DNA from: an uncultured virus (IMG/VR IMGVR_UViG_3300031707_000002)
Lineage: Duplodnaviria; Heunggongvirae; Uroviricota; Caudoviricetes
Reading direction: 5' to 3' (one strand)
Virus record (IMG/VR): IMGVR_UViG_3300031707_000002
Length of the DNA: 64,000 nt
The position numbers and the translations under genes are program-made. Shown piece after piece: positions 25,946-64,000 of the stretch. The notes under the pieces are model-generated. The model was not told the origin of the DNA. It saw only the letters and a list, made by a program, of their open reading frames with translations, and did not search any database. The number at the start of each line of letters is the position of its first letter. Within the stretch, counting starts at the first letter, position 1.

Positions 25946-27064
25946 TCACCTCAATCCTGTTGTTCCTGTAGGATATGCTAATTCATTTCTCATCTGCAAT
26001 AAAGGCCATTTAGCAGAACTTGCGGGGACAGGTGTACCCACAGTAATAAAAGTGGAAGGAGAATCTTGTGAGTTGTATGATGTACTTATCCAACTAGCGG
26101 ATCTGACTACTGAGGATACCCTGTGCTCATCAATTCTTCCCGGCCAACCTGTATCAAAACCATCTACAGATTGTTTCCACGCATAACGATTCTGTGTAAT
26201 GTCCCTTGACCAAGAAGTATCCTGGGCGACATACGCCCCATTTCCGTATGATTTTATGGTAGTTGACGCATTATCATACGATACAGTTATATGTCCCCAA
26301 TTGGACGATGATGTATAAAACACCCCCGTATTAAATGAAGTAATATTGCTGTCGCCATTGACCTTGAACTGATCATCATCCCCGTTACCCCAGAGAACAA
26401 AATCACAGCTATATCCGGCAGTGCCACCACCCACAAGTCCACGTTGAGTATCATAGTATGTAATGCTTTGCCATACTTCAACGGTTATTGTAGAAGGATT
26501 TGCAAAGGAATTACTCGCAAACCCAGAATTGTAAAAATATGTTGTAGTATTCTGACATTTACCTATTTTGCCATCTTCTTCAGTTGACCCCGTTCCAAAC
26601 TCAGTTCCTGTATGTCCATTGCCTGTTGCATCGGTTAATGTCGTTGTACCGTCCCCATGCCATACCAGCATGAAACTATTTGACCATACGGCATTCCTTC
26701 CATATGTGTCAGTGACAGCAGGCATTGATGCTGAGGAATTATTGTACCAAACGTAGATGACAGTATCTACAGTTGAAGATACTGAAGTTACCTTAACCCA
26801 AATTTCAGCTAAACCATTGGCGGGATTATTGTCTCGTGTGAACGAGACTACTTCCACGGGGAGTTGAGTAGCGCCAGCGGAATCTGAGGAAAACCTAATA
26901 TCCCCGCCGTCTGAATTGGCAGGGTAGCTGCCATCAGCATCGAACATCTCGGAGGGAAGATTACCTACAGTAAATAAAACAGGGAAGTTAGATTGATCTG
27001 CACTTACTTTAGTGTGATCAATTGTTAATGAACATCTGCGGTTCCATCCTGAAGGGAAAGCCAT
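25946..27064 (-). CDS. DUF2341-like plus LamG domain virion protein
   Basis: 'TIDHTKVSADQSNFPVL', 'DGGDIRFS', 'EIWVKV', 'IYVWYNN', 'GRIDEHRVS..VRSASWI'. Confidence 0.8.
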   Translation of the reverse strand: MAFPSGWNRRCSLTIDHTKVSADQSNFPVLFTVGNLPSEMFDADGSYPANSDGGDIRFSSDSAGATQLPVEVVSFTRDNNPANGLAEIWVKVTSVSSTVDTVIYVWYNNSSASMPAVTDTYGRNAVWSNSFMLVWHGDGTTTLTDATGNGHTGTEFGTGSTEEDGKIGKCQNTTTYFYNSGFASNSFANPSTITVEVWQSITYYDTQRGLVGGGTAGYSCDFVLWGNGDDDQFKVNGDSNITSFNTGVFYTSSSNWGHITVSYDNASTTIKSYGNGAYVAQDTSWSRDITQNRYAWKQSVDGFDTGWPGRIDEHRVSSVVRSASWISTSYNSQDSPSTFITVGTPVPASSAKWPLLQMRNELAYPTGTTGLR

Positions 27065-27071
27065 GTCTTAC

Positions 27072-27641
27072 TCATGCTGTAAATAAAGTTGTAGCCAGCC
27101 AATCAATATTTGAATTTACAAGATTCTGCACTACAGAATCCGCTACAGCGCCTCCGGTAGATTGAATGGTAGAGTCCTGACTTATCAAAGCCATAAAGTA
27201 GCCAATATAATCATCAAGGCTATTAGCTAGGTCTGAAGCAAGTTTTGATCTTTGACTATGATATGTGGTATCTGCTGACTCATTGCGAATATCGTATGAA
27301 GCCTTCAGCATAGCCCCTTTTGTCCGATCACGCAATGGTCCTGAATTGTAAAGTTTGGAAATGTTAGATAGTGTTGAGGTTATTACTAGTGAATGATCTG
27401 CTTCAGGGGTTTCCACCGTCCGCATGTAATATGCGGCTTCATCTCCAAGTCCCTCATGATAAACATAAAAACCAACACTATTCCAGAGTCCTGTTGGCCT
27501 AGATTCATCAGAATCTTTCCCAACCTCAAAGAAACTAACCCGATACCAAGTGACTCCATCCGTTTCCACTTGCTGCACTTCAGGAGTGCGGACTACAAGA
27601 TATTTTCCAGATAGTTGAGCCAGCAGTGCAGCCTTATTCAT
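27072..27641 (-). CDS. Hypothetical protein (virion cluster)
   Basis: 189-aa ORF with an RBS-like sequence upstream. Confidence 0.65.
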   Translation of the reverse strand: MNKAALLAQLSGKYLVVRTPEVQQVETDGVTWYRVSFFEVGKDSDESRPTGLWNSVGFYVYHEGLGDEAAYYMRTVETPEADHSLVITSTLSNISKLYNSGPLRDRTKGAMLKASYDIRNESADTTYHSQRSKLASDLANSLDDYIGYFMALISQDSTIQSTGGAVADSVVQNLVNSNIDWLATTLFTA

Positions 27642-27656
27642 ACATTTTCCCTCTCA

Positions 27657-29105
27657 TTAAATTTTTGAGATAAGTTCAGCAGTCACCCAATCGCACGTAA
27701 ACACATCAGAATCTGTAGTCAAATCCACTTGTAACGTGAGAGCTTGATCTTTATTTGTAGCCAGTGATCCTCCCGACCCATAGGCGCGGTCAGCATCGTG
27801 CCATAGATACCCATCTATATTTGTACCAGCAAGATAAATATGGCCACAAAGAACTATTGGTGTATTACCCGTTGCTGCAAGTGCTACTACAGATGTACCG
27901 TTCCAGCACAACCTAAAAGTTCCGTTCGCACTACCTGTTGTCCTTCTAACACCGGCCTGTAACCTCAGTATCCTATTATCTACTAAGGTATAAGCTGGAA
28001 CAGTTATTGTTTTCAGTATTTGAAATCCAGCACCAGTTGCAGTTGAAGCTGTAGTAGAAACCGCTATCGCCTGTACAACCTCTTTGTAGTTTATTTTCCA
28101 AGTTTGCGCGCTTGCCGTAAAATCAAGAACAAATTCAAAACGATCCGTAACTCTGTGGTACAGGTTAGTATTGGTCACATCATTTATTACTGACGGTGAT
28201 AAGGACCAACACGCCTCTGTGTTCAACTTCAATCTTTTCCACCTATTGACTGAAGCACCAGATCCATAATTTTCGTCGGAGGTTCCCCAAGCATCCAATG
28301 ACCACATCAAGGAAGATAGATACCCAAAGTTAGATAGCTCTTGTCCTACAACACTAGCATTGGCTATAACTCCACCGCCTGCTACATTTATCGGATATGA
28401 ACGCCTAAGACTAACAGCCTTCGCCCCGCGAGCATACCAGTCAGTCTTAGTCTCGTATCCCCCAGAACCAGAATAAGCTGCTGTGTTTATTGCAAAACTT
28501 TCCAAAAGAATCCAATCAATTGATCTCAAATGTGAGGAAACTAATGTTGGATTATAAGTAGAGTTTGGATAGCTTACATCGTTTGCTATGCCTAACAAGT
28601 GATCGGTGTTCCAAGCGTTAGCAAATGCCAACTTTGAGTATGTCCGACTATGCACATAGTCCAACATAGTATTAAACTGCGCCCTGGTTACAGTATAGTC
28701 ATATCCTGACTCATCCATGAACACACCATCAACTTGTAGTGTATTCCACTGATCTACTTTTGTCTGAAAATTTACCAAAGTTTGGTTCGCAATGACATAA
28801 CCAAAAATCAAGCATTTTGGATTAAGAACTTTGATTCTGGGTATTATTATCTGGGTATTGACATAATCAGGATGTGTAGGGGATTGTATAGTGTCACCAA
28901 AAACAATAAGATCATACTTAGCAAAATCCTGTGCCACAGCTTCATTATACCAAGCATTTTGAGCACTATTAAAACTATTTAGATAGCCATAGTAAATCAA
29001 AAGATTCTTAGGTGAAACCTCTTGTTTTTCCAGAGTATTTACCAAGTTAGATATAGTTTGTATATCTTGACTCATCTGTCTATTTAGATACTTTTCACTT
29101 GGCAT
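27657..29105 (-). CDS. Putative TIM-barrel glycoside hydrolase (spherulin-4/GH114-like) with C-terminal structural domain
   Basis: 'LLIYYG', 'YDLIVF', 'IFGYV', 'VDGVFMDESGYDY', 'WILLES' pattern. Confidence 0.55.
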   Translation of the reverse strand: MPSEKYLNRQMSQDIQTISNLVNTLEKQEVSPKNLLIYYGYLNSFNSAQNAWYNEAVAQDFAKYDLIVFGDTIQSPTHPDYVNTQIIIPRIKVLNPKCLIFGYVIANQTLVNFQTKVDQWNTLQVDGVFMDESGYDYTVTRAQFNTMLDYVHSRTYSKLAFANAWNTDHLLGIANDVSYPNSTYNPTLVSSHLRSIDWILLESFAINTAAYSGSGGYETKTDWYARGAKAVSLRRSYPINVAGGGVIANASVVGQELSNFGYLSSLMWSLDAWGTSDENYGSGASVNRWKRLKLNTEACWSLSPSVINDVTNTNLYHRVTDRFEFVLDFTASAQTWKINYKEVVQAIAVSTTASTATGAGFQILKTITVPAYTLVDNRILRLQAGVRRTTGSANGTFRLCWNGTSVVALAATGNTPIVLCGHIYLAGTNIDGYLWHDADRAYGSGGSLATNKDQALTLQVDLTTDSDVFTCDWVTAELISKI

Positions 29106-29114
29106 AGAATTCCT

Positions 29115-29318
29115 CTACTTAACTGTTCTTCTCTTCGATTTAAGATCAGAAATATCCCACACTCTCATACAAATAACCTTTCCCCCATGATCACCTGCAT
29201 ACCAACAATCTCGAAGCTCTAAATCACAGTTCCCGTACTCTACATTATGCTTTTTCTTATGATAACATTCTGTCTTATCTGTGCATTTCTTATAATAAGA
29301 ACAACGAAACTTTGTCAT
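29115..29318 (-). CDS. Small Cys/His-rich protein
   Basis: 67 aa, CxxxxxC...CYH..H pattern, GAGG RBS. Confidence 0.55.
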   Translation of the reverse strand: MTKFRCSYYKKCTDKTECYHKKKHNVEYGNCDLELRDCWYAGDHGGKVICMRVWDISDLKSKRRTVK

Positions 29319-29321
29319 TCA

Positions 29322-30101
29322 CTATGGATACTGCCTTCCAGTTTGCCTATCAATATGTCTACAAAAGATAGAAGTATCACAAAGAAACGGATGCTCCCGT
29401 TTTGCAACTTTCTTCCACCCTGTTTTTTCAAGAACCTTGTTCTCAAGTAACTGATCAAAGAAGTAAAGATCCTGAGTCCCGGCTTTTCTAGAAAAAGACA
29501 TACTCTCGGGGTCTAAGAATACCTGCTGAGGTGTCTCAAACACCTTATGAAGCACGGTTCCATCACACGCCTTATACTCAGCCGTATGCTCCCACATCCA
29601 CTTCAAAATCGAAGTATGAATGAGCAAACAACCCATTGGAAGACCATCACACCAAACTTTATCCCCTATCTTCCAATCCGTATATGACCCATTACCCCGA
29701 CCCCTAAAAGTCAAAGGAAGTGTAGGTGAAGCCTTCAAGTAATACAAACCAGAGACTACCGGGATAGTCTCTTTCTTAGTATATTCAAAAAACCTTAAAA
29801 AAAGATCGGGCGGTATTAGTACATCATCTTCAATAGTTATCAGCCAATCAACCCCTAATTCCAAGGCTTTCTTAGTGATGCAATTGTAGGCATCAGCAAT
29901 GTTATACCCTATAGCCGTATATGCCAAATCAAACCCAGACGCTTCCCAATTCATCGGAATGATCTGGGCAAATCTGTTGTGACACCACTCGTAACGCACC
30001 CATCCTTCAGTGGGAGTAGCTATAAGAGTCCTTTTCTTCCACTTCTTCTTGCAATATGACAGAATCTCTCTTGTCCCGGTTGTCTTTTTTGTCTCTTTCA
30101 T
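29322..30101 (-). CDS. Glycosyltransferase (GT-A/GT2-like)
   Basis: 'WLITIEDDV', 'VVSGLY', 'GLPMGCLLI', 'QDLYF', 'DTSIFCRHID'. Confidence 0.75.
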   Translation of the reverse strand: MKETKKTTGTREILSYCKKKWKKRTLIATPTEGWVRYEWCHNRFAQIIPMNWEASGFDLAYTAIGYNIADAYNCITKKALELGVDWLITIEDDVLIPPDLFLRFFEYTKKETIPVVSGLYYLKASPTLPLTFRGRGNGSYTDWKIGDKVWCDGLPMGCLLIHTSILKWMWEHTAEYKACDGTVLHKVFETPQQVFLDPESMSFSRKAGTQDLYFFDQLLENKVLEKTGWKKVAKREHPFLCDTSIFCRHIDRQTGRQYP

Positions 30102-30252
30102 CCCTAGTTATCCTTCCGATAGCTAATAAAACTACCTGCTCAAGCAATGGATTCTTGCTTAAACAGGATGAACAAGTGTAAACAGAATTCACTAACACCG
30201 GACCAACATCAACACTCTTTCTACAAAACTGACATTTAATACTTGGCATATC

Positions 30253-30738
30253 CTACTCCTCAATCTTGCGAAGTGCAATCTCAAGGGTCGCGTGCTTATC
30301 CCACGAAACCTTCTCACCCTTCCAAGGCTTAGGTCTATAAATCTGATAAAGAGGTTGATCTTTTATGAAATATGTAGGTGTAGCTTCATTCCAGGGAGAA
30401 ATATGAGTTGGGTCTTGATAATACCCAAAACTTGTTGCATAAGGGGTCGCTATCATTAACAACCCGTCAGGAACAAGAACCCTCCAACACTCATTCATTA
30501 AGTCAATCTGAAGCCACGGTTTAATGTGCTCCACCAAATGACTCATCACAACAACAGCACAACTACAATCTGGCAAAGGCCACGGAAATACCTCTGCATC
30601 ATGCACTATGTCAACACCATCAACCTTACGCTTGTCCATCCCTGTGAATCCTTTTTGCTTATTGAATCCACAGCCAACATCAAGACGTAACTTCTGCTTA
30701 ACTAAGAGTTTCCTTAGTCCTGATTTTTTCGCAGACAT
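30253..30738 (-). CDS. Class I SAM-dependent methyltransferase (Methyltransf_11-like)
   Basis: 'LDVGCG', 'SHLVEH', 'ECWRVLVPDG', 'QDPTH'. Confidence 0.85.
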   Translation of the reverse strand: MSAKKSGLRKLLVKQKLRLDVGCGFNKQKGFTGMDKRKVDGVDIVHDAEVFPWPLPDCSCAVVVMSHLVEHIKPWLQIDLMNECWRVLVPDGLLMIATPYATSFGYYQDPTHISPWNEATPTYFIKDQPLYQIYRPKPWKGEKVSWDKHATLEIALRKIEE

Positions 30739-30997
30739 TGATACTTAGCCCTCCAGACGAATCAGACTGTTTAGAGACTTCTTCCTGCACAGGGTACTGC
30801 ACAGGTCCACCTGTCCCTATATTATACGCTTCATTCATCATTTCTGTAAAGACAAACGTATCTTTACTTGACAAACAAAATTTTCTTCCCCAAGGCTTAC
30901 CCTTATAGGTAAACTGCTTGATAGGAGAAAACGGACTTTCTAAAAAAGAAAATGGAGATTGCTCTCCATTCTCTCGAACATCCAAATTGTCAGCCAT
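30698..30997 (-). CDS. Hypothetical protein
   Basis: 99-aa ORF with GGAAGG RBS. Confidence 0.5.
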   Translation of the reverse strand: MADNLDVRENGEQSPFSFLESPFSPIKQFTYKGKPWGRKFCLSSKDTFVFTEMMNEAYNIGTGGPVQYPVQEEVSKQSDSSGGLSINVCEKIRTKETLS

Positions 30998-31009
30998 AAC
31001 CTTCCAATC

Positions 31010-31492
31010 TTATGAAAACCTCAACTGGTAAGTCGCACTGATAGCTTGGTTACTATTCCATGCACTTGAGTTGAACGTCTGACCACACGCCAAAGTTCCA
31101 CCAGAACTCGTGTTGAACAATCCAAGATTCTGAACACTCGGAGTACCACCGGGATTATCACCACTTGCCCATGAAGCAGTACACTGAAGCGTACCAGTCG
31201 ATACAAGAGAATTGGAAGTAGTCTTACGTGTTCCCGTCTCACCCTGCAAGGAAGTATGCGAGGCGTTAGGGGCAGTACCGGTTCCAATACCCATGTAACT
31301 GATCTGCTTACTTCCACCAAGACCACCAACCGAACCTACGATGTAATTCTGAAATCCATCATTGACAACTTGGTTCTCTTGCCAACCAGAGTCACCAACA
31401 ACCACAGTTTTTCCACCCCTAACCTCACCAATAGCAACACGGAAAAAACCATGTACCTGGATGTTAGAACTTACACTTCTCTTCTTTGCCAT
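31010..31492 (-). CDS. Putative structural protein (tail-collar-like)
   Basis: 'NQVVNDG', 'YMGIGTGTAP...TSLQGE', 'LGLFN..SGGTL' recur in phage fibre-associated proteins. Confidence 0.6.
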   Translation of the reverse strand: MAKKRSVSSNIQVHGFFRVAIGEVRGGKTVVVGDSGWQENQVVNDGFQNYIVGSVGGLGGSKQISYMGIGTGTAPNASHTSLQGETGTRKTTSNSLVSTGTLQCTASWASGDNPGGTPSVQNLGLFNTSSGGTLACGQTFNSSAWNSNQAISATYQLRFS

Positions 31493-31559
31493 ACTAACTC
31501 CTTCAAAAAAATGTGTCTGTCAATATCGGATACTGTTTACAGATTTACCATCTGCTAAA

Positions 31560-32528
31560 CTAACTCAACATCGAATTTGAAACCACATTCAACTCAAGCT
31601 CGGCAGGTGTAGTAGCTGCAAGAGCCGAAATCCGAAGAGTACCAAAAACCCGACCATCAATAGACACATTCTTTTCACCTTCACTCTGAACAGAAACTCC
31701 AGAAGAAACAAGAACACCAGCATCCGCACCACCCACAAAATTATCAAGAGCACTGATAGCAGCATTAACAACACCAGCCGAAACATCAGTAAGAGCAGCA
31801 GAAGCCGCCTTACCAACAGTACCCCACGCTGTCCCTGACGCTACACCAGCAATCACTTGAGCCACTGTTGACGTAGCAGCCTTGGAAATAGTCACACTAT
31901 TCTTAGCCCACGCAATTGTCTCAGAACCCGCTGCAACTGTGTTCTGCATAACCACAGTATACTCATTGTAAACTTGACCACCAAGAAGAGCAGTAACCGA
32001 AACTTTGTTCTTCTCACCATAAGCCTTAGAAGGATTGAAATTGTTATTGCTTTGAGCAAGAACAAGAGAAACAACACCACCAAAAAGATGCTTAAACATC
32101 AGGACAGGATTTACAGGAAAACCCTTTCCACCCTCTTTTTCAAGATTAAGGTCAATCGAAGAAGGGGCAACACCAACAACCGCATCCGGCATCATACGGA
32201 TAGCAGTCAAAGCCTGAGCAACAACAGCAGTACCACCAGCAGCAATAGCAGCAATAGTTCCCCAAGGAGTTCCAGTTACAGTAGCAGCAAGAACCTGAGT
32301 AATCGTTGACACACCACCCTGCACATTGATCGTGCAACGATTCGGTGTCCAAACAATCGTCTCATGTGTCGCTACTACTGAATTAAGAACCTCCACACCA
32401 AAGTCATTCTGCACCTCACCAACATCAATAGCAGTAATGCTCATAATGTTGACCACAGGAAACTCACCATACGCCTTAACACCAGTAACCACAGGAGCCT
32501 GAATAATCTTGCGAATAACGGATACCAT
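31560..32528 (-). CDS. Ala/Val-rich structural protein with internal duplication
   Basis: Two related halves ('ETIVW.PN..TI...ST.TQV.A...GTPWGT' and 'ETIAWAKN..TI...ST.AQV.A...GTAWGT'). Confidence 0.65.
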   Translation of the reverse strand: MVSVIRKIIQAPVVTGVKAYGEFPVVNIMSITAIDVGEVQNDFGVEVLNSVVATHETIVWTPNRCTINVQGGVSTITQVLAATVTGTPWGTIAAIAAGGTAVVAQALTAIRMMPDAVVGVAPSSIDLNLEKEGGKGFPVNPVLMFKHLFGGVVSLVLAQSNNNFNPSKAYGEKNKVSVTALLGGQVYNEYTVVMQNTVAAGSETIAWAKNSVTISKAATSTVAQVIAGVASGTAWGTVGKAASAALTDVSAGVVNAAISALDNFVGGADAGVLVSSGVSVQSEGEKNVSIDGRVFGTLRISALAATTPAELELNVVSNSMLS

Positions 32529-42842: not shown

Positions 42843-43250
42843 CTAAGAGGCAGGTATCTCTCCCCACTCTTTTGACTTCATCAAAGCATCCATAACAGAA
42901 CGGGCCTTCTGGGAAAGTTCCGGGTTTTGCCTGGAATTCCAGCGTTCTATGTTGGAGATCGCTCTTGTCATTGCCGGTTTACCCTTTTTCTTTGCTATCT
43001 TGATAAAATGAGAAACAAGGTCTTTAACCGGCCACTCAGACCAAGAGTTTGCTGGCAACTTCGTGATACCCGGAAACTTCGCCTTCACCATAACCTTTTC
43101 AGAAAGAGTTAGCTCCTCAGAGACTTCAAACTGACCCCAAGCATCAACGAAGTCGTTAGCCGCTTCAAGAAGTTTCTTGATATAGCCTGACCCACAAGAC
43201 TCTATCGCCTTTGATCTTTTTGAAAAATTCACCATAACTATTCTCTCCAA
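42843..43250 (-). CDS. Hypothetical protein
   Basis: 135-aa ORF; likely start at the second Met after GGAG. Confidence 0.6.
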   Translation of the reverse strand: MERIVMVNFSKRSKAIESCGSGYIKKLLEAANDFVDAWGQFEVSEELTLSEKVMVKAKFPGITKLPANSWSEWPVKDLVSHFIKIAKKKGKPAMTRAISNIERWNSRQNPELSQKARSVMDALMKSKEWGEIPAS

Positions 43251-43254
43251 CTTG

Positions 43255-43298
43255 AAAAAAGGCTGTCAAGGAATATTCCCAAACCCTGACAGCCTTTT
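43255..43298 (-). terminator. Rho-independent terminator (possibly bidirectional)
   Basis: AAAAGGCTGTCA...TGACAGCCTTTT inverted repeat with T tracts on both strands. Confidence 0.75.
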
Positions 43299-43322: not shown

Positions 43323-43856
43323 TTACTCGTCACCCTCATCATCGCCCTCATCATCACCCTCATCATCTTCCGCTTCAGCATCAGAAGTCCACTCAACGTA
43401 CTTATCCATCATCTCCACAAGAGCCTCTTCCGCTTCCTCTGTAGACTCCACAGTCACACCCTCGTCAACGTCATCACCATTGTTTGCATCAACGGCATAG
43501 ACATCCATCGCACCATCATACGCCTCAATGATGATAGACACGTCTTCAGATTCATCAGAAGAAAGAACAAGAAAAGGCTCATCACTGTCATCACGGTCTG
43601 ACACTGACCAGCCACTTTCCTTCGCCAAAGACTCAACAGTATCAAACCAAGCAGTCACGTCATCAGTCTCAAGCTGCTCACAAGCAGATGCAGTATCGCC
43701 CGATCCATCACCAGAATCATCACCAGAGTCATCACCACTTCCGGGGTCATCACCAGAAGGGTCTTCTACACCCTTCTTCTTTTTTCCTTTTGCTTCATCG
43801 AGGACAGCAACACCGCCTTGCTTTATGTCCTCATATATATCAATAAATACTGACAT
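43323..43856 (-). CDS. Very acidic protein, N-terminal VFIDIYE motif
   Basis: 177 aa, GGAGG RBS, DDSG/DDEG repeats. Confidence 0.75.
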   Translation of the reverse strand: MSVFIDIYEDIKQGGVAVLDEAKGKKKKGVEDPSGDDPGSGDDSGDDSGDGSGDTASACEQLETDDVTAWFDTVESLAKESGWSVSDRDDSDEPFLVLSSDESEDVSIIIEAYDGAMDVYAVDANNGDDVDEGVTVESTEEAEEALVEMMDKYVEWTSDAEAEDDEGDDEGDDEGDE

Positions 43857-43881
43857 AGTGCCTCCAAGATACAGGTACGAG

Positions 43882-44040
43882 TTACTTTGTGGTACTCACT
43901 TTGTCTGCTCCTGATTTAGCGTGCAAAGAGACAGAAGCAGAAGGAGACTTCTTTTCTCCCATAATCCACGAATCTTCGTCTGACTTGGGATTACCCTTCC
44001 GGCTTGCAATAATCTTTGCACGTTTTGTTAAAAAACTCAC
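43882..44040 (-). CDS. Small basic protein (52 aa), not in ORF track
   Basis: GGAGA RBS then GTG: MSFLTKRAKIIASRKGNPK...VSTTK*. Confidence 0.45.
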   Translation of the reverse strand: MSFLTKRAKIIASRKGNPKSDEDSWIMGEKKSPSASVSLHAKSGADKVSTTK

Positions 44041-44057
44041 GCAATCTCCCTACAAGC

Positions 44058-44100
44058 AAAAAAGGGAAGGCTTGGGCTTATTAAAACCCAAAACCTTCCC
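44058..44100 (-). terminator. Putative terminator after prohead core-like gene
   Basis: GGGAAGG..TTGGG / CCCAA..CCTTCCC stem followed by T6 on the minus strand. Confidence 0.65.
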
Positions 44101-44110
44101 TAATACCCGA

Positions 44111-44776
44111 CTACTGCTTGTCTTCAGTACCCTCAGTACCCTCGTCACCTTCACCCTCAAGGTCTTCCGAAACCTCATCAAGATACTCACAATACGAATC
44201 AAGGTACTCCTGATCCCGTTCGTCAATCTTACCCTCATGTGCTATCACAGACTCAACAACCTGCATCACAGGAGCAATGTCGTTGAGAACAATCGAATAC
44301 AGTTCGTCATTCTCAAGACCCTCTGCCACACACTCATTCAGATGTGTCATCAGAGATTCCTTAATCTCCTCATAACTCTCGTCTGTGAGCTTCGGATTCT
44401 TCTCATCAGAGAGAACCGTCTCAAGAACTGCACGAACATTATCAATAGCACTCTCACCATACCGACGCTTACGGGTCTTCAGAGCACGCTTCGCACGAAG
44501 ACGAAGTTTCGACTTCGGAGTACGCCGCATTGCCTTCTTCATAGCACGGGCAAGAGCACGACTCTTGTACACACCATGCGAACGACGACGAGCCGCAAGA
44601 CGACGCTTCCGACGCTCCGACGCAGTAGGCTTACGCGAAGCCTCATCAAGCCCATCACTACCCTCAAGAACAGGTTCCGGGGCAGCAGGAGCAGCAGGCT
44701 TTGACCCTCGACCCGCCATGATCGACTCAAGGATCGCCGCTTCGGTAGACTTTCCACTCATAACAGTACCCTCCAT
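44111..44776 (-). CDS. Prohead core protein-like (T4 gp67/gp68 character)
   Basis: Arg/Lys-rich block bounded by 'LDE|A' and 'YGE|S', then an acidic helical tail; located shortly after the portal gene. Confidence 0.5.
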   Translation of the reverse strand: MEGTVMSGKSTEAAILESIMAGRGSKPAAPAAPEPVLEGSDGLDEASRKPTASERRKRRLAARRRSHGVYKSRALARAMKKAMRRTPKSKLRLRAKRALKTRKRRYGESAIDNVRAVLETVLSDEKNPKLTDESYEEIKESLMTHLNECVAEGLENDELYSIVLNDIAPVMQVVESVIAHEGKIDERDQEYLDSYCEYLDEVSEDLEGEGDEGTEGTEDKQ

Positions 44777-44793
44777 GTAAAAAGTTTTGAAAA

Positions 44794-47784
44794 TTACTTT
44801 CGATCTTCAGGAGACAAGAACACACCCTTCAAGAAATTCACAGCACTTACCTTCTTTCCTTCAAAAAGATTACCCATCTTCTCATAGGTTAGTGACCTGA
44901 AAACATTGAGAGACGGAACCCTTCTGAGGTCATTCTCTTTGACCACCCTACTGAGGCAGGAACTAAAAGCAAGAACCGCTTTGTTGAAGTCCATATTTTC
45001 CGGCAAAAGTTTTCGGATATTTCTATGCAAATCAGTCCGCTTCAAAACCTCCGCTCGAAGATTACCCAAGATTTCCTCAGACAAAACCTTCTTTGCCACA
45101 CCCTCATAATACTCTGGTGTTGCCTTCTCATAAGCATCAATTGGTGTCAAACTTCGATCATACATCTCAGTCATAAAAGCAGAAATCTCTTCGTGATCCT
45201 TATGAGACAGGGACAAATTCTTTGCCCTCATCACATTCAAAGCAGAATAGAACTCGGGGTAAATTTCAACAAACCGATCATACAAACCCTCACAAACCTT
45301 GCTGTCTGTCAACTTATCAAACTCAACAAGCAACGGGCTTATAGCACAAAGAGTAGCATCATCAAGTTTTGAAAACTCCTGCAAAGCATCTGTATCAACC
45401 TCTAAGTTTTCTGAATACTTTTTGATGTTTGCTACAATCACACCTTTATCTGCATCCCCAAACTTATACACAAGAACATTCTCTACAATAGCAGGAATAT
45501 TAGAGTTTCCTAACAAAGAATCCGCTATCTCTATACCCCTAAACTCAACACCAAAACGCTTACAAGATTCAGTCAGCTTCTCAATTCGCTTCTCTTGATT
45601 ATCCTCGTTTATATGGGAGTTGTTCAAAAGATGAAAAACTTCCACAATTGCGGAATCATAAGACAAGCTCTCTTCCACTTCCAAAGCAGAGAAACCGCAT
45701 CGGCCACACTTACCACCAAACCCTTCACAAGCACACCTTGGGCAAATCATACTCTTTACCCCCACCCCAGAGGAAAGAACCTGCTCAAGATCGTACCCAC
45801 AATCCGTACAGTGCTTTGGATAACGCCCACGATACTTCGGAATCAACATCCCGCACGAAGGACACTGGCCCTTGTACTTGATCTTGTCAAAAGCAGTCTG
45901 CATCCCCGGAGTCATGCCTTGCTCATTTGTCTGCTCATCCGTCTGCTCCCCAAATCTCTTAGCAACCTTTTCTATTGCATTCAACATCCTCTCTTCTTTC
46001 TTTGCACACTCAGCACAGAAAAGACCAAACGCCTTATTAGAAAGTTCACCTTCTTTACCACACCTCGCACATTTACCTGTTTTCTTAGAAGATCCTTCTT
46101 CTATCTGCTCCCAATTCATATTATTTGCGAGATACTGAGCATGAAGATCATTTACTACCTTCATATCCTTAATACCAAACTGTTGTGAAAACTGAGTAAG
46201 AGTCTTACCAGTATCTTTCAAGTCAGAATGATCCTTAAACCAATCAAACATCTTTCGTGTGATATTCACACCAGACTCATTTACCTGCTCATTCTGGTCA
46301 ATAACACTGCCTTTCTTATGAAAAGGAGGATACGTCACCAGAGCATCACCTTCTTTGTTGACCATGTAATAACCAGCCAACGTACTATCTTTTACCCTAC
46401 TCTCATATCCCATCTTCTTAGCAAGTGCATCAAACTCTTTCAAAGTAATATCTGAGGCAATTACCTTCGCTTTTCCAGTATCAGTTGTTTCCTTGTTTAC
46501 CAAAGCAACTGACACTTTAAGAGTTACTTCTACTACCTGCTCATCAAACTTTTTATCCATCGGTATAGCTGCATCAGTCCTTACCCCGGAAGGGGGCTTT
46601 TCTCTTTTCGATATAAACCAACTATCTCTGTCCTTCCCCTGCCACGCAATAACACCCTTTGGCAATTTACCAGCATACGATTTTACAGCCTTGTATGTCA
46701 CCAAATATGTCCCACCATCCATGATATTCTTTATCATCTTCTCTAAATCATCTGTATCCTCAATTATTACATCCTCTTTTATCTCTGACATCTTCTTTAC
46801 ATTCGTAGCCCAATCAGGCAACTCACCTCTCACCAAATACCAAGTCTTATCCCCGTTCTTTTCTTGAAACGCATGAGTATCTTGGGGAACCTTACCAATA
46901 AACTGTTTCAGGTCTTTCTCACTTCCGATCTTAACAATAGCACTCTCTAAAGACACCAAAATACCTTGCAAGTCTGTACTAGCTACCCGCTCTACCACTA
47001 CCTGCTCACTAACTCCCTCTTTCTTAGTCTGTGATTTAAGCACGTCTTTCAAAAAATCTATAGCCTTAACAGCATACCCATCAAATATCTTTCTTGTTCC
47101 TTTGAAAAGAGCTACCTTTCCAACCTTATCAATATTGCTTCTCTCAAGAGTAGCCTTGAAAGCTGTATTGTACTCAGTAATGTACTTATCAAGCTCTTCC
47201 TCGTCTACCTTACTCTCACCCACCACAGAAGCCTCCGGCTGTACCAAGTGCTCCCCACACTCAGGACAAAACTTAGGATACCTGCCTGGGTAAGTAGGAA
47301 CCACAAACCCGCAACTGTCACACTTCTTCCAAACATTACCCTTAGAAACACTTCCGTAAACAGCCTTTCCCATACCCGGAGTCATCTGCTCATTCAATTT
47401 ATCCAAAACAACACTGGCAACAGTACAGATTGTTGCTGCTTCCTTTGTTGTAATTACTGATTCCATGTACTTACGAAAAAGAGAATCAAGAAATATTCCC
47501 AAATCAGAAATTCCTGATATGGAATCCTTATCTACACCCTTGACTTTTTTCATTAAGTCAAGTATACTCTTAGAAACTTCTTTTGCTTGGGATTTTACAT
47601 CGGAAGGGAAGTCAACAACAAAATCTCCAAGAGCCTTCAGGAACTCGGCTCCCTTTTCGAGATCAGAAATTGACTTCACATACTGCGAAGGAACCGACTT
47701 AGAAACGGCATCTTCAAATGCATTCTGTTGACCTAACATGGAGTAATTTTGCCCTTTCCTGTATTGCAGGAACTCGAAGGTCAC
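44794..47784 (-). CDS. 996-aa modular protein with multiple zinc ribbons
   Basis: Two 'MTPGM...CxSCG..P.Y.GRYPK.CxxCG' modules plus two further CxxC..CxxC sets. Confidence 0.75.
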   Translation of the reverse strand: MTFEFLQYRKGQNYSMLGQQNAFEDAVSKSVPSQYVKSISDLEKGAEFLKALGDFVVDFPSDVKSQAKEVSKSILDLMKKVKGVDKDSISGISDLGIFLDSLFRKYMESVITTKEAATICTVASVVLDKLNEQMTPGMGKAVYGSVSKGNVWKKCDSCGFVVPTYPGRYPKFCPECGEHLVQPEASVVGESKVDEEELDKYITEYNTAFKATLERSNIDKVGKVALFKGTRKIFDGYAVKAIDFLKDVLKSQTKKEGVSEQVVVERVASTDLQGILVSLESAIVKIGSEKDLKQFIGKVPQDTHAFQEKNGDKTWYLVRGELPDWATNVKKMSEIKEDVIIEDTDDLEKMIKNIMDGGTYLVTYKAVKSYAGKLPKGVIAWQGKDRDSWFISKREKPPSGVRTDAAIPMDKKFDEQVVEVTLKVSVALVNKETTDTGKAKVIASDITLKEFDALAKKMGYESRVKDSTLAGYYMVNKEGDALVTYPPFHKKGSVIDQNEQVNESGVNITRKMFDWFKDHSDLKDTGKTLTQFSQQFGIKDMKVVNDLHAQYLANNMNWEQIEEGSSKKTGKCARCGKEGELSNKAFGLFCAECAKKEERMLNAIEKVAKRFGEQTDEQTNEQGMTPGMQTAFDKIKYKGQCPSCGMLIPKYRGRYPKHCTDCGYDLEQVLSSGVGVKSMICPRCACEGFGGKCGRCGFSALEVEESLSYDSAIVEVFHLLNNSHINEDNQEKRIEKLTESCKRFGVEFRGIEIADSLLGNSNIPAIVENVLVYKFGDADKGVIVANIKKYSENLEVDTDALQEFSKLDDATLCAISPLLVEFDKLTDSKVCEGLYDRFVEIYPEFYSALNVMRAKNLSLSHKDHEEISAFMTEMYDRSLTPIDAYEKATPEYYEGVAKKVLSEEILGNLRAEVLKRTDLHRNIRKLLPENMDFNKAVLAFSSCLSRVVKENDLRRVPSLNVFRSLTYEKMGNLFEGKKVSAVNFLKGVFLSPEDRK

Positions 47785-54992: not shown

Positions 54993-54999
54993 AAGTAAA

Positions 55000-55087
55000 T
55001 ACGGGGGATGGGACTCGAACCCACAGGCTCCCTTTCGGGAAAAGCGAATTTTAAGTTCGCCGTCTATGCCAATTCGACTACCCCCGC
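55000..55087 (-). tRNA. tRNA-Leu(TAA)
   Basis: Anticodon arm GCGAA-CTTAAAA-TTCGC, long variable arm, T-loop GGTTCGAGTCC, paired acceptor stem; CCA not encoded. Confidence 0.92.
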
Positions 55088-55092
55088 AAAAA

Positions 55093-55172
55093 TACGGGTG
55101 AAGGGACTCGAACCCCCACGCTTTCGCATCAGATTTTGAATCTGAGATGTCTACCAATTCCATCACACCCGC
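55093..55172 (-). tRNA. tRNA-Leu(CAA)
   Basis: Anticodon arm TCAGA-TTCAAAA-TCTGA, variable arm GCGAAAGC, T-loop GGTTCGAGTCC; CCA not encoded. Confidence 0.92.
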
Positions 55173-55177
55173 AAGTA

Positions 55178-60655: not shown

Positions 60656-60976
60656 TTACTTTGATCCCACTCTCTGCTTTCCGCACATAGGACAGAATTT
60701 TACACCGTTATCTGTTGCTGTACCTTCAGAAAAACACCACTTATCCCCACACTCCGTATCATAAGAGTCTGTTGTAGAGTCGTATATCCAATGACAAGTC
60801 TTCTTTGGCTTCGCACACACCTCTCCTTCCACTATGATCTCACCTCTTGGACGAACTGGAGGTGGAGGAGGTGGAGGAGGTGGAGGAGGTGGAGGAGGTG
60901 GAGGAGGTGCCGGAACTTTCTTCATTCGCTCCAATTTCTCTGGTGACGGTAAGGATCGTGGCGCGTTTGTAGTCAT
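60656..60976 (-). CDS. Poly-proline plus zinc-ribbon protein
   Basis: Long P run encoded by CCT/CCA codons; C-terminal 'TECG...FCPMCGK'. Confidence 0.65.
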   Translation of the reverse strand: MTTNAPRSLPSPEKLERMKKVPAPPPPPPPPPPPPPPPPPVRPRGEIIVEGEVCAKPKKTCHWIYDSTTDSYDTECGDKWCFSEGTATDNGVKFCPMCGKQRVGSK

Positions 60977-61413
60977 TTCTCACCCACTACCTTCAACAAA
61001 TCATCCATTGTCTCTCTGTCAGCAACAACTACAAAAAGACGCAAAAGATGGTCTACAGCATCTTTAAGTTCTACCCACTTAGCTTTGAACTTAACATAAA
61101 ACTTCTCTGGTAACTCATACTCAGAATAGTTAATCTGCTTTTGCATATCAAAAATCTTTGTCTTAACAACAGCTTCAACATCAGAAACAAGTGAAGGTGA
61201 AACTACTAAACGAACTCTTCTATTCCAATACTCTACCGCTTCCTTCTCAGAGTAAACCAACCCACCACACGTAGCTCCACAATCACACTGCACTCGAAAA
61301 TCACCAAGATCGTCAAGCTCCTCGTACATCTCAGGAGTACCGCCACAAAAAGGACAAGGCAGTAACCCCTCTACTGGATGGTCTGTCTTAACACTCATTG
61401 AAACTCCTTCCAC
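60973..61413 (-). CDS. Lar-family restriction-alleviation-like protein
   Basis: 'LLPCPFCGG...VQCDCGA...EAVEYWNRR'. Confidence 0.7.
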   Translation of the reverse strand: MEGVSMSVKTDHPVEGLLPCPFCGGTPEMYEELDDLGDFRVQCDCGATCGGLVYSEKEAVEYWNRRVRLVVSPSLVSDVEAVVKTKIFDMQKQINYSEYELPEKFYVKFKAKWVELKDAVDHLLRLFVVVADRETMDDLLKVVGEK

Positions 61414-62178: not shown

Positions 62179-62382
62179 TCAACCTATAGTGTCAAGCCGT
62201 GTTTTGGGCTTTAGCTGTTGTACGAAGTGGCGCAAATTCCGCAGTGTCCGCCACGCCTTATCCAACAGCGTGTACCAATGATAAACTATGAATGCACGCG
62301 GGAATCCTGACCAGAAATGCCACTTACCGCAATACGGATAGTTACAGAACGATTTACTTTCAATAATGAAACCTCTCCACAT
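62179..62382 (-). CDS. Cassette ORF (terminal unit, half-site only)
   Basis: 67 aa, reads through GTACAAC. Confidence 0.45.
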   Translation of the reverse strand: MWRGFIIESKSFCNYPYCGKWHFWSGFPRAFIVYHWYTLLDKAWRTLRNLRHFVQQLKPKTRLDTIG

Positions 62383-62432
62383 AAACTTCTACTTTCCGGC
62401 GCGGCCTATAAATTCAGGCTTTGCGCCATTTT

Positions 62433-62556
62433 GTACAACGTCTACGCAATGGGCGATAGTTTGCCCCTACAATTACACTGGCCTACCACGACCACATGTA
62501 TGCCATCGGTGTCCTCAAAATAATGAGGGCAAATTTCGGCCCTTGCGGTGTTGGGT
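62433..62556 (-). repeat. attC-like site F
   Basis: CCCAAC-ACCGCAA-GGGCCGAAATTTGCCC ... GGGCAAACTATCGCCC-ATTGCG-TAGAC-GTTGTAC. Confidence 0.8.
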
Positions 62557-62678
62557 GCCGGTTTGTCAACCACCACGCGGTTGGCCGCGCTCCAACCGAT
62601 CTCCGCACTCACCATATCTATCTGATAATCACCAGGCCCTTGCGTCTTCCACCACTCACGGAATGTCTTCGCGGCCAT
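62442..62678 (-). CDS. Cassette ORF
   Basis: GGAGG RBS, MAAKTFREWW...; ends inside site F. Confidence 0.65.
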   Translation of the reverse strand: MAAKTFREWWKTQGPGDYQIDMVSAEIGWSAANRVVVDKPAPNTARAEICPHYFEDTDGIHVVVVGQCNCRGKLSPIA

Positions 62679-62705
62679 ATCACCTCCAAAGTTGACAAAC
62701 TGGCA

Positions 62706-62831
62706 TCCCAACGTCTTGCGAAACGTGCGCCGTGCTACAGATTATAGTGGCACACCATACACGCTTCGCCGAGCGAATACCGCCCTGCACGCTCACCACA
62801 GTTCGGACATGGCGCACTTTTGCTGTTGGTT
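62706..62831 (-). repeat. attC-like site E
   Basis: ACCAAC-AGCAAAA-GTGCGCCATG ... CACGGCGCAC-GTTTCGC-AAGAC-GTTGGGA. Confidence 0.8.
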
Positions 62832-62950
62832 GTCTGTTGAGCGAGTACAGCGGTTTTCAGAGTTTGCCATGCTTCATCCGCAAGAACGACATTACCTACA
62901 TGTATAGCACAATTTTTCTCGATAGCATCAATAGCCTCGATTGGCGTCAT
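62735..62950 (-). CDS. Cassette ORF with C-terminal zinc ribbon
   Basis: AGGAG RBS; CPNC...CMVC is encoded within site E. Confidence 0.65.
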   Translation of the reverse strand: MTPIEAIDAIEKNCAIHVGNVVLADEAWQTLKTAVLAQQTTNSKSAPCPNCGERAGRYSLGEACMVCHYNL

Positions 62951-62986
62951 GGCATACTCCTATAATAAATTTTAGAGCGAAATTGC

Positions 62987-63046
62987 AAACAACGTTCCGG
63001 CAAATTGCCGAAGTGTGCATCACATTTTGGCATTTGCCTGTTGTGT
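62987..63046 (-). repeat. attC-like site D (60 bp)
   Basis: ACACAAC-AGGCAAA-TGCCAAAATGTG-ATG-CACACTTCGGCA-ATTTGCC-GGAAC-GTTGTTT. Confidence 0.85.
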
Positions 63047-63244
63047 GCTGTTTTTTGCGCCACCGCTGCTTTCAGAGGTTGGCGGGGATGGAACGAGCAT
63101 CCAATGCGTTATTTTGCAATTATACTCGCAATGGCCAGCAATAAAATCCTGTGCGTGAATAGTCTCGATACTGCCGTTGTCAAAATGAACTAATATCGGG
63201 CCATCGTAATCCGGGACAACACCTTCACCTTTTTTGTACCACAT
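63020..63244 (-). CDS. Cassette ORF, DUF551-like
   Basis: AGGAGG RBS, MWYKKGEGVVP...ITHWMLVPSPP; ends in the loop of site D. Confidence 0.7.
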   Translation of the reverse strand: MWYKKGEGVVPDYDGPILVHFDNGSIETIHAQDFIAGHCEYNCKITHWMLVPSPPTSESSGGAKNSTQQANAKM

Positions 63245-63281
63245 AGCCAACCTCCTATAATTTGAAAGCGCAAAAAATTGC

Positions 63282-63414
63282 ATACAACGTTTTGCTCTAT
63301 TGCGACGTGCGTGACAACCACTTGTCAACCTTATTACGGTAGCACTCCGAACAACGCGGAGATTTGGTCCGCACAAAAACGCACTCTCCGCATGGCGTAA
63401 TAGCGCTGTTGGGT
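63282..63414 (-). repeat. attC-like site C
   Basis: CCCAAC-AGCGCTATT-ACGCCATGCG ... CGCACGTCGC-AATAGAGC-AAAAC-GTTGTAT. Confidence 0.75.
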
Positions 63415-63554
63415 GCCGTGGAATGAGCATCCGCCAGATAGTGGCCACAGTCGCTGCACAAAGAATAGTTGCTGTCCCGAACTATGCATACATCTCGCTT
63501 AATGCAATCAAGTTTTTTGTGGCCACCTATAACCTCCAAGCGAATGAATGGCAT
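63297..63554 (-). CDS. Cassette ORF, Cys-rich (start uncertain)
   Basis: Several CxxC pairs; the RBS-linked GTG is one base out of frame across an A6 run. Confidence 0.5.
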   Translation of the reverse strand: MPFIRLEVIGGHKKLDCIKRDVCIVRDSNYSLCSDCGHYLADAHSTAPNSAITPCGECVFVRTKSPRCSECYRNKVDKWLSRTSQ

Positions 63555-63692
63555 CCCAACGATCCGCGCTACTGGTTCCGTTGCTCGATCTCACGCAGAA
63601 AATCACAAAACCTCATTTTTTGCGCATCAGACCGAGAAGAAGACAATGCCAGTTTGCGCACGAGAGCAATGGCATCTATAGCGCTGTTGGGT
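63554..63692 (-). repeat. attC-like site B
   Basis: CCCAAC-AGCGCTA-TAGATGCCATTGCTC ... GAGCAACGGAACC-AGTAGCGC-GGATC-GTTGGGA. Confidence 0.78.
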
Positions 63693-63793
63693 GCCGTTGT
63701 TGACAATTCCTCCGGTTTGGAGGCGCAGCGATCGCACGAACCTGCCGGTATGCCGTGCTGACACCACCCGTTGAGCAATACGCTATCATTCAT
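63569..63793 (-). CDS. Cassette ORF
   Basis: GAGGAGG RBS, MNDSVLLNGWCQHG...CDRC; ends in the right arm of site B. Confidence 0.65.
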   Translation of the reverse strand: MNDSVLLNGWCQHGIPAGSCDRCASKPEELSTTAPNSAIDAIALVRKLALSSSRSDAQKMRFCDFLREIEQRNQ

Positions 63794-63832
63794 TTTGCGC
63801 CTCCTCGGCATATCGACTTGTCAACTATGGCA

Positions 63833-63960
63833 TCCCAACGTCCGAGCAATGTACGCAGTGCTACTGCTTGTGACAAATCGGAACTCCGGTACAGCAACAA
63901 CTTTTGATAGGATACTTGCAGCTCGCATACAGAGAGCATTGCGTACTTGCTTTGTTGGTG
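63833..63960 (-). repeat. attC-like site A
   Basis: ACCAAC-AAAGCAA-GTACGCAATGC ... GCACTGCGTAC-ATTGCT-CGGAC-GTTGGGA. Confidence 0.8.
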
Positions 63961-64000
63961 GATGTAAATCTTTCCACCATAGCGTTCTGTGCGGCATTCC

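Follow-up and report, generated by a model that had tools for sequence, protein, structure and literature searches.

A probable integron-like cassette array without a recombinase gene in an uncultured large phage

Introduction

Integrons are the textbook bacterial device for the capture and reshuffling of genes; what has been seen of their components in phages is, to our knowledge, limited to a few canonical attC clusters. A tyrosine recombinase of the Xer family also acts on a hairpin of phage DNA in the case of CTX-phi, where the host XerCD enzymes integrate the whole single-stranded DNA phage at dif; this is not a gene-cassette array in double-stranded DNA phages. Here we describe such an array in a stretch of 64,000 nucleotides (nt) from an uncultured virus of the Caudoviricetes (IMG/VR record IMGVR_UViG_3300031707_000002), the whole of which we call the window. 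We consider it probable (roughly 0.6) that the window holds the distal part, six and a half cassettes, of an array of eight that lacks a recombinase and that is a phage-borne analogue of an integron. The term "integron-like" is apt and "integron" is not; the array is not a canonical integron.

Among 10,705 phage genomes, 3 integrons and 17 clusters of attC sites lacking integron integrases (CALINs) with canonical attC sites have been described (Qi et al. 2023, PMC9892861), and the term Xer is absent from that text. The promoter early stem-loops (PeSLs) of T4-type phages are composite motifs that bracket small accessory open reading frames (ORFs) in plastic regions of large myoviruses, mark the boundaries of insertions, deletions and replacements and can yield mini-circles (Arbiol et al. 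2010, PMC2839356; Comeau et al. 2014, PMC4122927). They are composed of a sequence-conserved sigma-70 early promoter and a GC stem-loop terminator, with homologous recombination between the -10 box and the ATG (PMC2839356, PMC4122927). In the literature we found no description of an arm-plus-hairpin system or of an Xer-type recombinase heading phage cassette arrays.

The array resembles integrons and CALINs in that its units are co-oriented and carry one ORF per cassette, its sites are set by hairpin geometry with an AAC...GTT box and have their boundary at GTT, and the 5' end of a cassette is complementary to the inverse-core side of the same cassette. Carriers likewise differ in which cassettes they have and in what order, the boundaries lying at the core site, and some arrays are without an integrase. 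With PeSLs it shares small accessory ORFs of a large myovirus that are bracketed by repeated motifs at exchange boundaries; unlike PeSLs, it has motifs that covary, shows no enrichment of promoter or terminator signals and has its breakpoints at a core of four bases.

Results

Site anatomy and covariation

On the minus strand, GTTG starts at 63839, 63560, 63288, 62993, 62712 and 62439, giving units of 279, 272, 295, 281 and 273 nt; the bases just before GTT at these sites are CGGAC, GGATC, AAAAC, GGAAC, AAGAC and TAGAC. These positions, lengths and 5-nt spacers had been read from the letters of the window alone (hereafter the sequence-only reading), together with one ORF per unit that usually has its own ribosome-binding site, and all of this is borne out: each unit in the window holds a single ORF of 67-85 amino acids (aa), and most have a GGAGG-like ribosome-binding site. 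Inspection of the sequence beyond base 64000, which the same reading had suggested along with a look for a tyrosine recombinase, revealed two further cassettes and no such enzyme in the phage. These two start at G001 42650 and 42988 (G001 is the 167,660-bp phage record containing the window; L002 is the numbering of a sub-stretch, in which L002 2989 equals G001 42988) and complete an array of eight units, all co-oriented. We define a cassette as running from the point between G and TTG up to the next G.

A repeat search showed that each GTTG opens an arm of 18-25 nt that is complementary to a CAAC-ended stretch 105-250 nt downstream, within the ORF of the same unit. The 5' arm has the form GTTG-N4-[A/C]AAT-X9 and the 3' arm, inside the cassette's own ORF, the form X9'-ACAN-N4'-CAAC. 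Along a cassette the order is 5' arm, short leader with ribosome-binding site, small ORF, 3' arm within that ORF, second hairpin and spacer. The first domain (D1) extends from GTTG to CAAC and contains the leader and ribosome-binding site together with the ORF segment that encodes the N-terminal part. The second (D2) begins 1-2 nt past CAAC and stops 4-5 nt before the next GTTG; this hairpin of 21-160 nt contains the C-terminal part of the ORF and its stop codon, and the 4-5 nt spacer that follows is usually G-R-R-A-C. Outside the hairpin the site extends over a box of 8 bp, a 4x4 internal loop and a helix of 9 bp, which sets it apart from the sites of integrons, and the inner geometry of attC, an approximately symmetric spacer and an L box with extrahelical bases, was not found here. 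Also unlike the situation in integrons, the ORFs cross the site and often end in its loop, and the cassettes carry their own ribosome-binding site.

Evidence for these sites comes from covariation among 28 distinct arm pairs of the above form, taken from 21 sequences and having 13 variable positions. An arm pairs with its own partner at a mean of 11.8 of the 13 positions, versus 5.6 with the partners of other cassettes, and at least 11 of the 13 are paired in 25 of the 28 arm pairs. Every variable position shows 3-4 types of Watson-Crick pair. CAAC/GTTG is invariant (28/28) and the next four pairs covary; the remaining consensus positions of the attC R box (RYYYAAC/GTTRRRY) are not kept, as in GTTGTAT and GTTGCAC. 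This heavy compensatory change agrees with the earlier claim that the hairpins share geometry rather than sequence, and the proposed departure from canonical spacer lengths is seen as well. Four arm pairs in the genome of 167,660 bp reach 11 or more Watson-Crick matches out of 13; all four are within the array, and 10 shuffled versions gave none. Among 34 pairs of adjacent cassettes, the 5' arm matches its own CAAC arm at 8.6 of 13 positions and the arm of the following cassette at 4.1. That a 5' end pairs with its own CAAC arm and not with that of the neighbor is the trace expected of recombination of circular cassettes between G and TT.

The D2 hairpins, 48 of which are distinct, follow a common plan in which a helix of about 6 bp comes first and 1-2 nt after CAAC stand opposite 4-5 nt before GTTG, as had been noted for the window (with 5 nt). 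The helix of 14 of 21 short D2 hairpins is first interrupted by a bulge confined to the 3' side, with further helices beyond it, and a short class of 42-50 nt has a conserved loop that holds the stop codon. DNA folding of the CAAC..GTTG stretches gave a single closed hairpin, from 1-2 nt past CAAC to 5 nt before GTTG, in four of six. For one of these sites (site D of the sequence-only reading) a length of 60 bp had been given; it measures 54 nt from CAAC to GTTG (62990-63043), which is close. The two-domain layout appears in minimum-energy folds of 7/8 units with RNA parameters and 6/8 with DNA parameters.

Such folds raise the possibility that the elements are RNA structures of a polycistronic early transcript that enclose coding segments for translational control or processing, the breakpoints being the edges of folding units. 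We regard this explanation as improbable. It is in keeping with the two closed domains that 7/8 units form under RNA parameters, with a third helix in GGGATGCC-type cassettes, formed by the ribosome-binding site GGAGGCGC and a part of the ORF that contains CCTCC, with a local alternative hairpin around a conserved ..ATT[A/G]TAGG motif, and with ORFs that look real. Pairs of the G.T type, however, make up only 3 of 476, which is unusual for conserved RNA helices and indicates DNA-type complementarity; A.C mismatches number 11, of which 7 adjoin the internal loop. An Rfam search (E<=1) of this array and of the array of a second, 48-kb phage (see below) returned no match, and an RNA role leaves unexplained both the exchange of cassettes between phages without common proteins and the adjacency of a recombinase to arrays. 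The two functions are not exclusive and may coexist.

The ..ATT[A/G]TAGG motif lies 31-33 nt past each GTTG in all cassettes (e.g., window 63255-63247 and 62960-62953), often in the loop of a local hairpin between the inner helix of the 5' arm and the bases that follow TAGG. Possible roles are those of a cassette promoter, a switch or a protein site. Because of this motif a T7-type RNA polymerase (PF00940) was sought; neither phage gave a match, but the control genomes gave none either, and this negative therefore carries no weight.

Cassette exchange

The same cassettes occur with different neighbors in other phage and metagenome contigs, and breakpoints cluster at GTTG, so the array does not show the fixed order, with breakpoints elsewhere, that had been named as evidence against shuffling. 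In 16 pairs of near-identical D1 modules on different contigs, the upstream flank diverges 0-6 nt from GTTG in 13; the downstream flank is identical for at least 60 nt in 9 and breaks directly after CAAC in 5, all of one cassette family. Half of the internal ends of homology between contigs (25/50) are no more than 8 nt away from a GTTG junction of our catalogue, versus 3.3% of random positions. A by-eye count of 46 distinct junctions placed 30 at GTTG and 11 at CAAC or in the 3' arm, which left 5 at other positions, and the tightest junctions bracket the crossover at the G of GTTG. There is thus a second, rarer exchange point at CAAC, which integrons do not have. Contigs of three other sediment runs have match ends at 62439/40, 62708 and 62993-6: one of them (depth 304) shares the phage backbone and the last cassette as far as 62440, where it diverges, and another covers exactly 62708-62993 (cassette 6) with both flanks unlike.

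Breakpoints of this kind could also arise if the units were recombination-tolerant modules without a dedicated enzyme, the junctions and arms being homology patches for general phage recombination, as in PeSLs, and selection keeping those recombinants that preserve pairing. Three observations agree with this: neither complete phage encodes a recombinase, the D1/D2 exchanges at CAAC are all among cassettes that share 12-25 nt of identical arm, and a segment replaced elsewhere in the genome is flanked by repeated early-promoter copies in a PeSL-like manner. We nevertheless find it unlikely. Most GTTG breakpoints share just about 9-10 nt, and the arms covary rather than stay conserved, which homology patches would not require. 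Sigma-70 promoter-like sites (2, versus 2.5±2.1 in shuffles) and terminator-like sites (2, versus 2.4±1.8) are at background, and a tyrosine recombinase abuts the array in 2/2 loci of its family.

The system is present in a second complete phage. This 48,148-bp record (G002) is a lambda-like siphovirus of 58% G+C content (GC) with a lambda-family portal, gpA terminase, DnaB and RusA; it shares zero proteins with the 167.7-kb phage at blastp E<1e-4 and has at least 10 units of the same build, with arm types common to both phages. A 14-mer scan of IMG/VR gave more than 119 loci, almost all due to chance, the real ones being a near-identical relative of the 167.7-kb phage and one locus of the 48-kb phage; the near-identical relative was the sole match of an 18-mer scan. 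Searching metagenomes with the two-arm pattern yielded 26 loci, of which 3 were chance-like, 3 were the two phages themselves and 2 came from one contig, and 19 further contigs were used. A search with the D2 motif added 8 viral contigs of 40-56% GC, with arrays in 7/8. The genes in or near arrays are phage-like and include Dam, Mom, C5-methylase, ERF, DUF5131, polymerase and terminase. The array of the 48-kb phage is split by a lower-GC insert with a 452-aa ORF (CxxxCxxC-like motif) that has cassette-type junctions on both sides (G002 43350-44900; L140 11350-12900).

These searches also bear on whether the array is a captured fragment of a bacterial chromosomal integron, a CALIN recognized by a host integron integrase. 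CAAC/GTTG agrees with the R-box consensus of attC in its YAAC/GTTR part, the GC of the array exceeds that of the phage, and CALINs with attC sites that IntI1 can recombine are reported in virulent phages (PMC9892861). The two-arm pattern, however, gave only 8 hits in 8 phyla across 596 Gb of prokaryote genomes, about the chance expectation (estimated at ~8), with extended arms in none. The true copies are all in viral or phage-like contigs, near Dam, Mom, ERF, DUF5131, terminase and polymerase genes, and spacer and bulge geometry are unlike those of canonical attC. A captured bacterial integron is very unlikely, because the two-arm pattern found no true bacterial copy in these genomes, and the cassette pool, in a further difference from integrons, seems confined to phages.

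Recombinase and upstream element

The sequence-only reading had found no integrase in the window; no tyrosine recombinase is found in the whole phage at E<=1 (below). A tyrosine recombinase (PF00589) occurs in one of 11 array-bearing records, where a 268-aa ORF ends 6 nt before the first GTTG of an array of at least six cassettes within a replication module. The family of this protein comprises about 34 clusters that are 43-100% identical and 266-293 aa long, and its catalytic R, K, H, R, H and Y residues are invariant. At the only other family locus in IMG/VR (54% identical), the stop codon overlaps a canonical arm and the contig ends thereafter. Hence, array adjacency is found in 2/2 IMG/VR loci of the family, whereas 77 of 78 other integrase loci from the same search are without such an arm. 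The sole exception (L202) is a long perfect inverted repeat and not the cassette-arm pattern.

Against curated cut-offs, the array-adjacent recombinase scores 130/220 for XerA, 125/265 for TIGR02249 (IntI), 108/335 for XerC and 100/330 for XerD. Its alignment with the XerA structure 4a8e extends over the full length, and the IntI-specific insertion is missing (38 residues versus 88 in IntI4, ~50 fewer). The protein belongs to the Xer/IntI superfamily and to none of the named families, and an Xer-like recombinase of 266-293 aa without the integron-integrase insertion is a further difference from integrons. No member of the family is encoded in either complete phage, and a tblastn search of 50,697 GenBank phage records (E<=1e-20) gave no match.

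In the 167.7-kb phage the array is preceded instead by a conserved 95-aa gene (L002 2989-3276, minus strand; G001 42988-43275, just past the window end). An element of about 35 nt, ending in ..TTGAG-NN-A immediately before GTTG, directly precedes the first cassette and is found with five different first cassettes: homologues of the 95-aa gene and the element stand before different first cassettes in L181, L154, L158 and L168, and contig L177 starts inside the element. The element is conserved despite a differing reading frame over it. Since it is kept regardless of frame while the first cassettes differ, it has the appearance expected of an attI-like entry site. We propose that it may be such a site and that the 95-aa protein may be an accessory protein. 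The predicted structure of the latter is a short helix and one long helix (mean predicted local distance difference test score, pLDDT, 69); a word-based homology search found three close relatives only, and there was no PHROG match.

Array layout and phage genome

The cassettes and their parts are as follows; positions are those of the window.

63840..64000, minus strand: cassette 2, 3' part; the cassette starts outside the window at G001 42650
63957-63954, minus strand: CAAC of cassette 2, then a 114-nt coding hairpin domain and spacer CGGAC
63561..63839, minus strand: cassette 3 (279 nt); ORF 63569-63793/63811; second domain 125 nt; spacer GGATC
63839-63815, minus strand: 5' arm of cassette 3, which pairs with CAAC-ended 63709-63686 (repeat search)
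63289..63560, minus strand: cassette 4 (272 nt); ORF 63297-63554 with CxxC pairs, start codon uncertain
63411-63408, minus strand: site of GGCACCCAAC in cassette 4, to which GTTGGGATGCC pairs over just 11 nt with one bulge
62994..63288, minus strand: cassette 5 (295 nt); arms 63288-63268 and 63060-63040; ORF 63020-63241, DUF551-like
63039-62994, minus strand: short hairpin of cassette 5, 46 nt, stop codon in the loop; site D above
62713..62993, minus strand: cassette 6 (281 nt); weak arm pairing; CAAC 62828-62825
62735-62950, minus strand: ORF of cassette 6, with C-terminal CxxC..CxxC
62440..62712, minus strand: cassette 7 (273 nt); arms 62712-62691 and 62570-62550; ORF 62442-62678
within cassette 7, minus strand: second domain of 110 nt, which codes for a Cys-rich tail
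62184..62439, minus strand: cassette 8, the last of the array; arms 62444-62420 and 62236-62217; ORF 62179-62382
62183-62180, minus strand: final GTTG in a degenerate site at the end of cassette 8; a phage gene (61941-62159) comes directly after

The cassette ORFs look real, judging by the match of the cassette 5 ORF to phrog_924/DUF551 (E 2e-6), by CxxC pairs in several ORF tails, by Zn-ribbon motifs, and by an N-terminal motif common to the ORFs of cassettes 2 and 7. Across the eight units (window 62179-64000 and L002 2398-2937) TAG is the stop codon of six ORFs, where it frequently forms part of a TAGC in the hairpin's 3' strand, and TGA is that of the other two; the core AAC is read as an Asn codon in 6/8. 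Tandem Repeats Finder reported nothing for the array, tRNA and transfer-messenger RNA genes are absent from the arrays, and blastn of the array against the 50,697 GenBank phage records gave no match.

A virus record of 167,660 bp, which has terminal repeats and is rated 100% complete, matches the window. The phage is a myovirus, with a T4-type portal, gp23-type capsid protein, tail sheath and family A polymerase, and all of its ORFs of at least 300 aa (46/46 in G001) are on one strand. GC is about 50% in the array versus 41.5% for the phage. The surroundings of the array are small early-type genes, among them two Lar-like restriction-alleviation proteins: these zinc-ribbon proteins (CPFCGG motif), encoded on the minus strand at window 60973-61413 and L002 3260-3511, flank the array region. 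An ORF at window 60656-60976 (minus strand) encodes about 19 consecutive prolines followed by a Cys-rich C-terminus.

Other features of the genome include an intein in the T4-type portal gene and an intein splicing domain in an adjoining 841-aa ORF (L124 6250-9483 and 9773-12298; G001 26250-32298), as well as an adjacent pair of tRNA-Leu genes with anticodons TAA and CAA (window 54999-55173, minus strand; L124 13535-13709). Outside the window, two early-promoter copies (TTGAC-N17-TATATT and a conserved leader) bracket a 561-bp segment (L002 5050-5611; G001 45049-45610). In a 99.4%-identical relative this promoter-flanked segment is swapped for 882 bp of other sequence, a PeSL-like modular exchange.

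Discussion

Several lines of evidence converge on integron-like exchange. Complementarity of a cassette to its own end and breakpoints at GTT are the signatures from which the crossover point of integrons was originally deduced. Together with the adjacency of a recombinase to arrays, they favor site-specific exchange on folded DNA. According to the mechanism that we envisage, the 3' arm, hairpin, spacer and 5' arm of a circularized cassette would form one long imperfect hairpin, the outer CAAC/GTTG box of which would have the layout of an attC site. A tyrosine recombinase would act on folded single-stranded DNA and exchange strands at the G of GTTG or immediately beside it, and cassettes would thereby be excised, inserted and moved between co-infecting phages. 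The compact Xer-like recombinase that abuts arrays in other phages is the candidate enzyme. Because the 167.7-kb phage is without such an enzyme, its array is presumably either serviced in trans or a frozen record of past exchange. We infer the single-strand mechanism, the exact cleavage point and the enzyme acting here.

A number of observations weigh against the interpretation of the array as an integron analogue. Some concern the pattern of exchange. As many as 11 of the 50 homology ends lie within 13 nt of CAAC (random 3.4%), and such breakpoints at CAAC and the 3' arm count against it because a single crossover point at GTT would not predict them. The GGGATGCC-type cassettes are abundant and share an arm of 12-25 nt, and ordinary homologous recombination is possible among them. 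No excised circle or empty site was seen. The array is identical in the near-identical relative contig, and there is therefore no sign of recent activity here. Every comparison sequence is a metagenome assembly, in which repeats can cause chimeras.

Other observations on the same side concern the enzyme and the sites. PF00589 is absent from the 167.7-kb phage (E<=1) and from the 48-kb phage, and the adjacency of the recombinase amounts to two loci, of which one is truncated at the end of its contig. Spacer lengths of 1-2 versus 4-5 nt contrast with about 5 and 6 in canonical attC, and the side of the bulge is different too. The arms of cassettes 4 and 6 are weak, and the sites 63285-63411 and 62709-62828 give no single closed hairpin. 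Of the six imperfect hairpins that had been described in the window, four thus stand as single closed hairpins, and the energies are not clearly better than those of dinucleotide shuffles (z = -1.37, -1.21, -0.75, -1.92, -0.56 and -2.60). Judged solely by the folding criterion that had been put forward for these sites, the finding would be weak, and folding energies do not show a strand preference either, the top strand being better in 23 and the bottom strand in 25 of 48.

Folding energy was rejected as support for the sites, given z values of -0.56 to -2.60. The case for the array rests on covariation and comparison; folding energy alone would not establish it. Of the cassette platform that had originally been proposed, integron-like exchange of cassettes is supported; the site is larger than was seen at that time, the ORFs cross it and CAAC is a second exchange point.

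More tentatively, and with less confidence than we place in the array itself, we suggest that phages may keep an integron-like gene-capture system of their own, separate from bacterial integrons. It would consist of self-translating mini-cassettes for small accessory genes, possibly anti-defence in function, with recombination hairpins that are translated. Exchange at GTTG would shuffle whole cassettes and in-frame exchange at CAAC would swap N- and C-terminal modules, and the arrays would be headed by the compact Xer-like recombinase or, as here, by the gene for the 95-aa coiled-coil protein and the attI-like element of about 35 nt. The cassette cargo seen comprises Dam, Mom, C5-methylase, DUF551 and Zn-ribbon proteins.

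If this is true, a parallel system based on a different, Xer-type recombinase and on a different site geometry circulates among virulent and lambda-like phages that are unrelated to each other. This would account for the trade of small accessory genes, possibly for anti-defence, across lineages without other common sequence. It would also mean that Xer recombinases gave rise to cassette capture a second time, independently, and, through exchange within the ORFs, would provide a natural mechanism for in-frame domain swapping.

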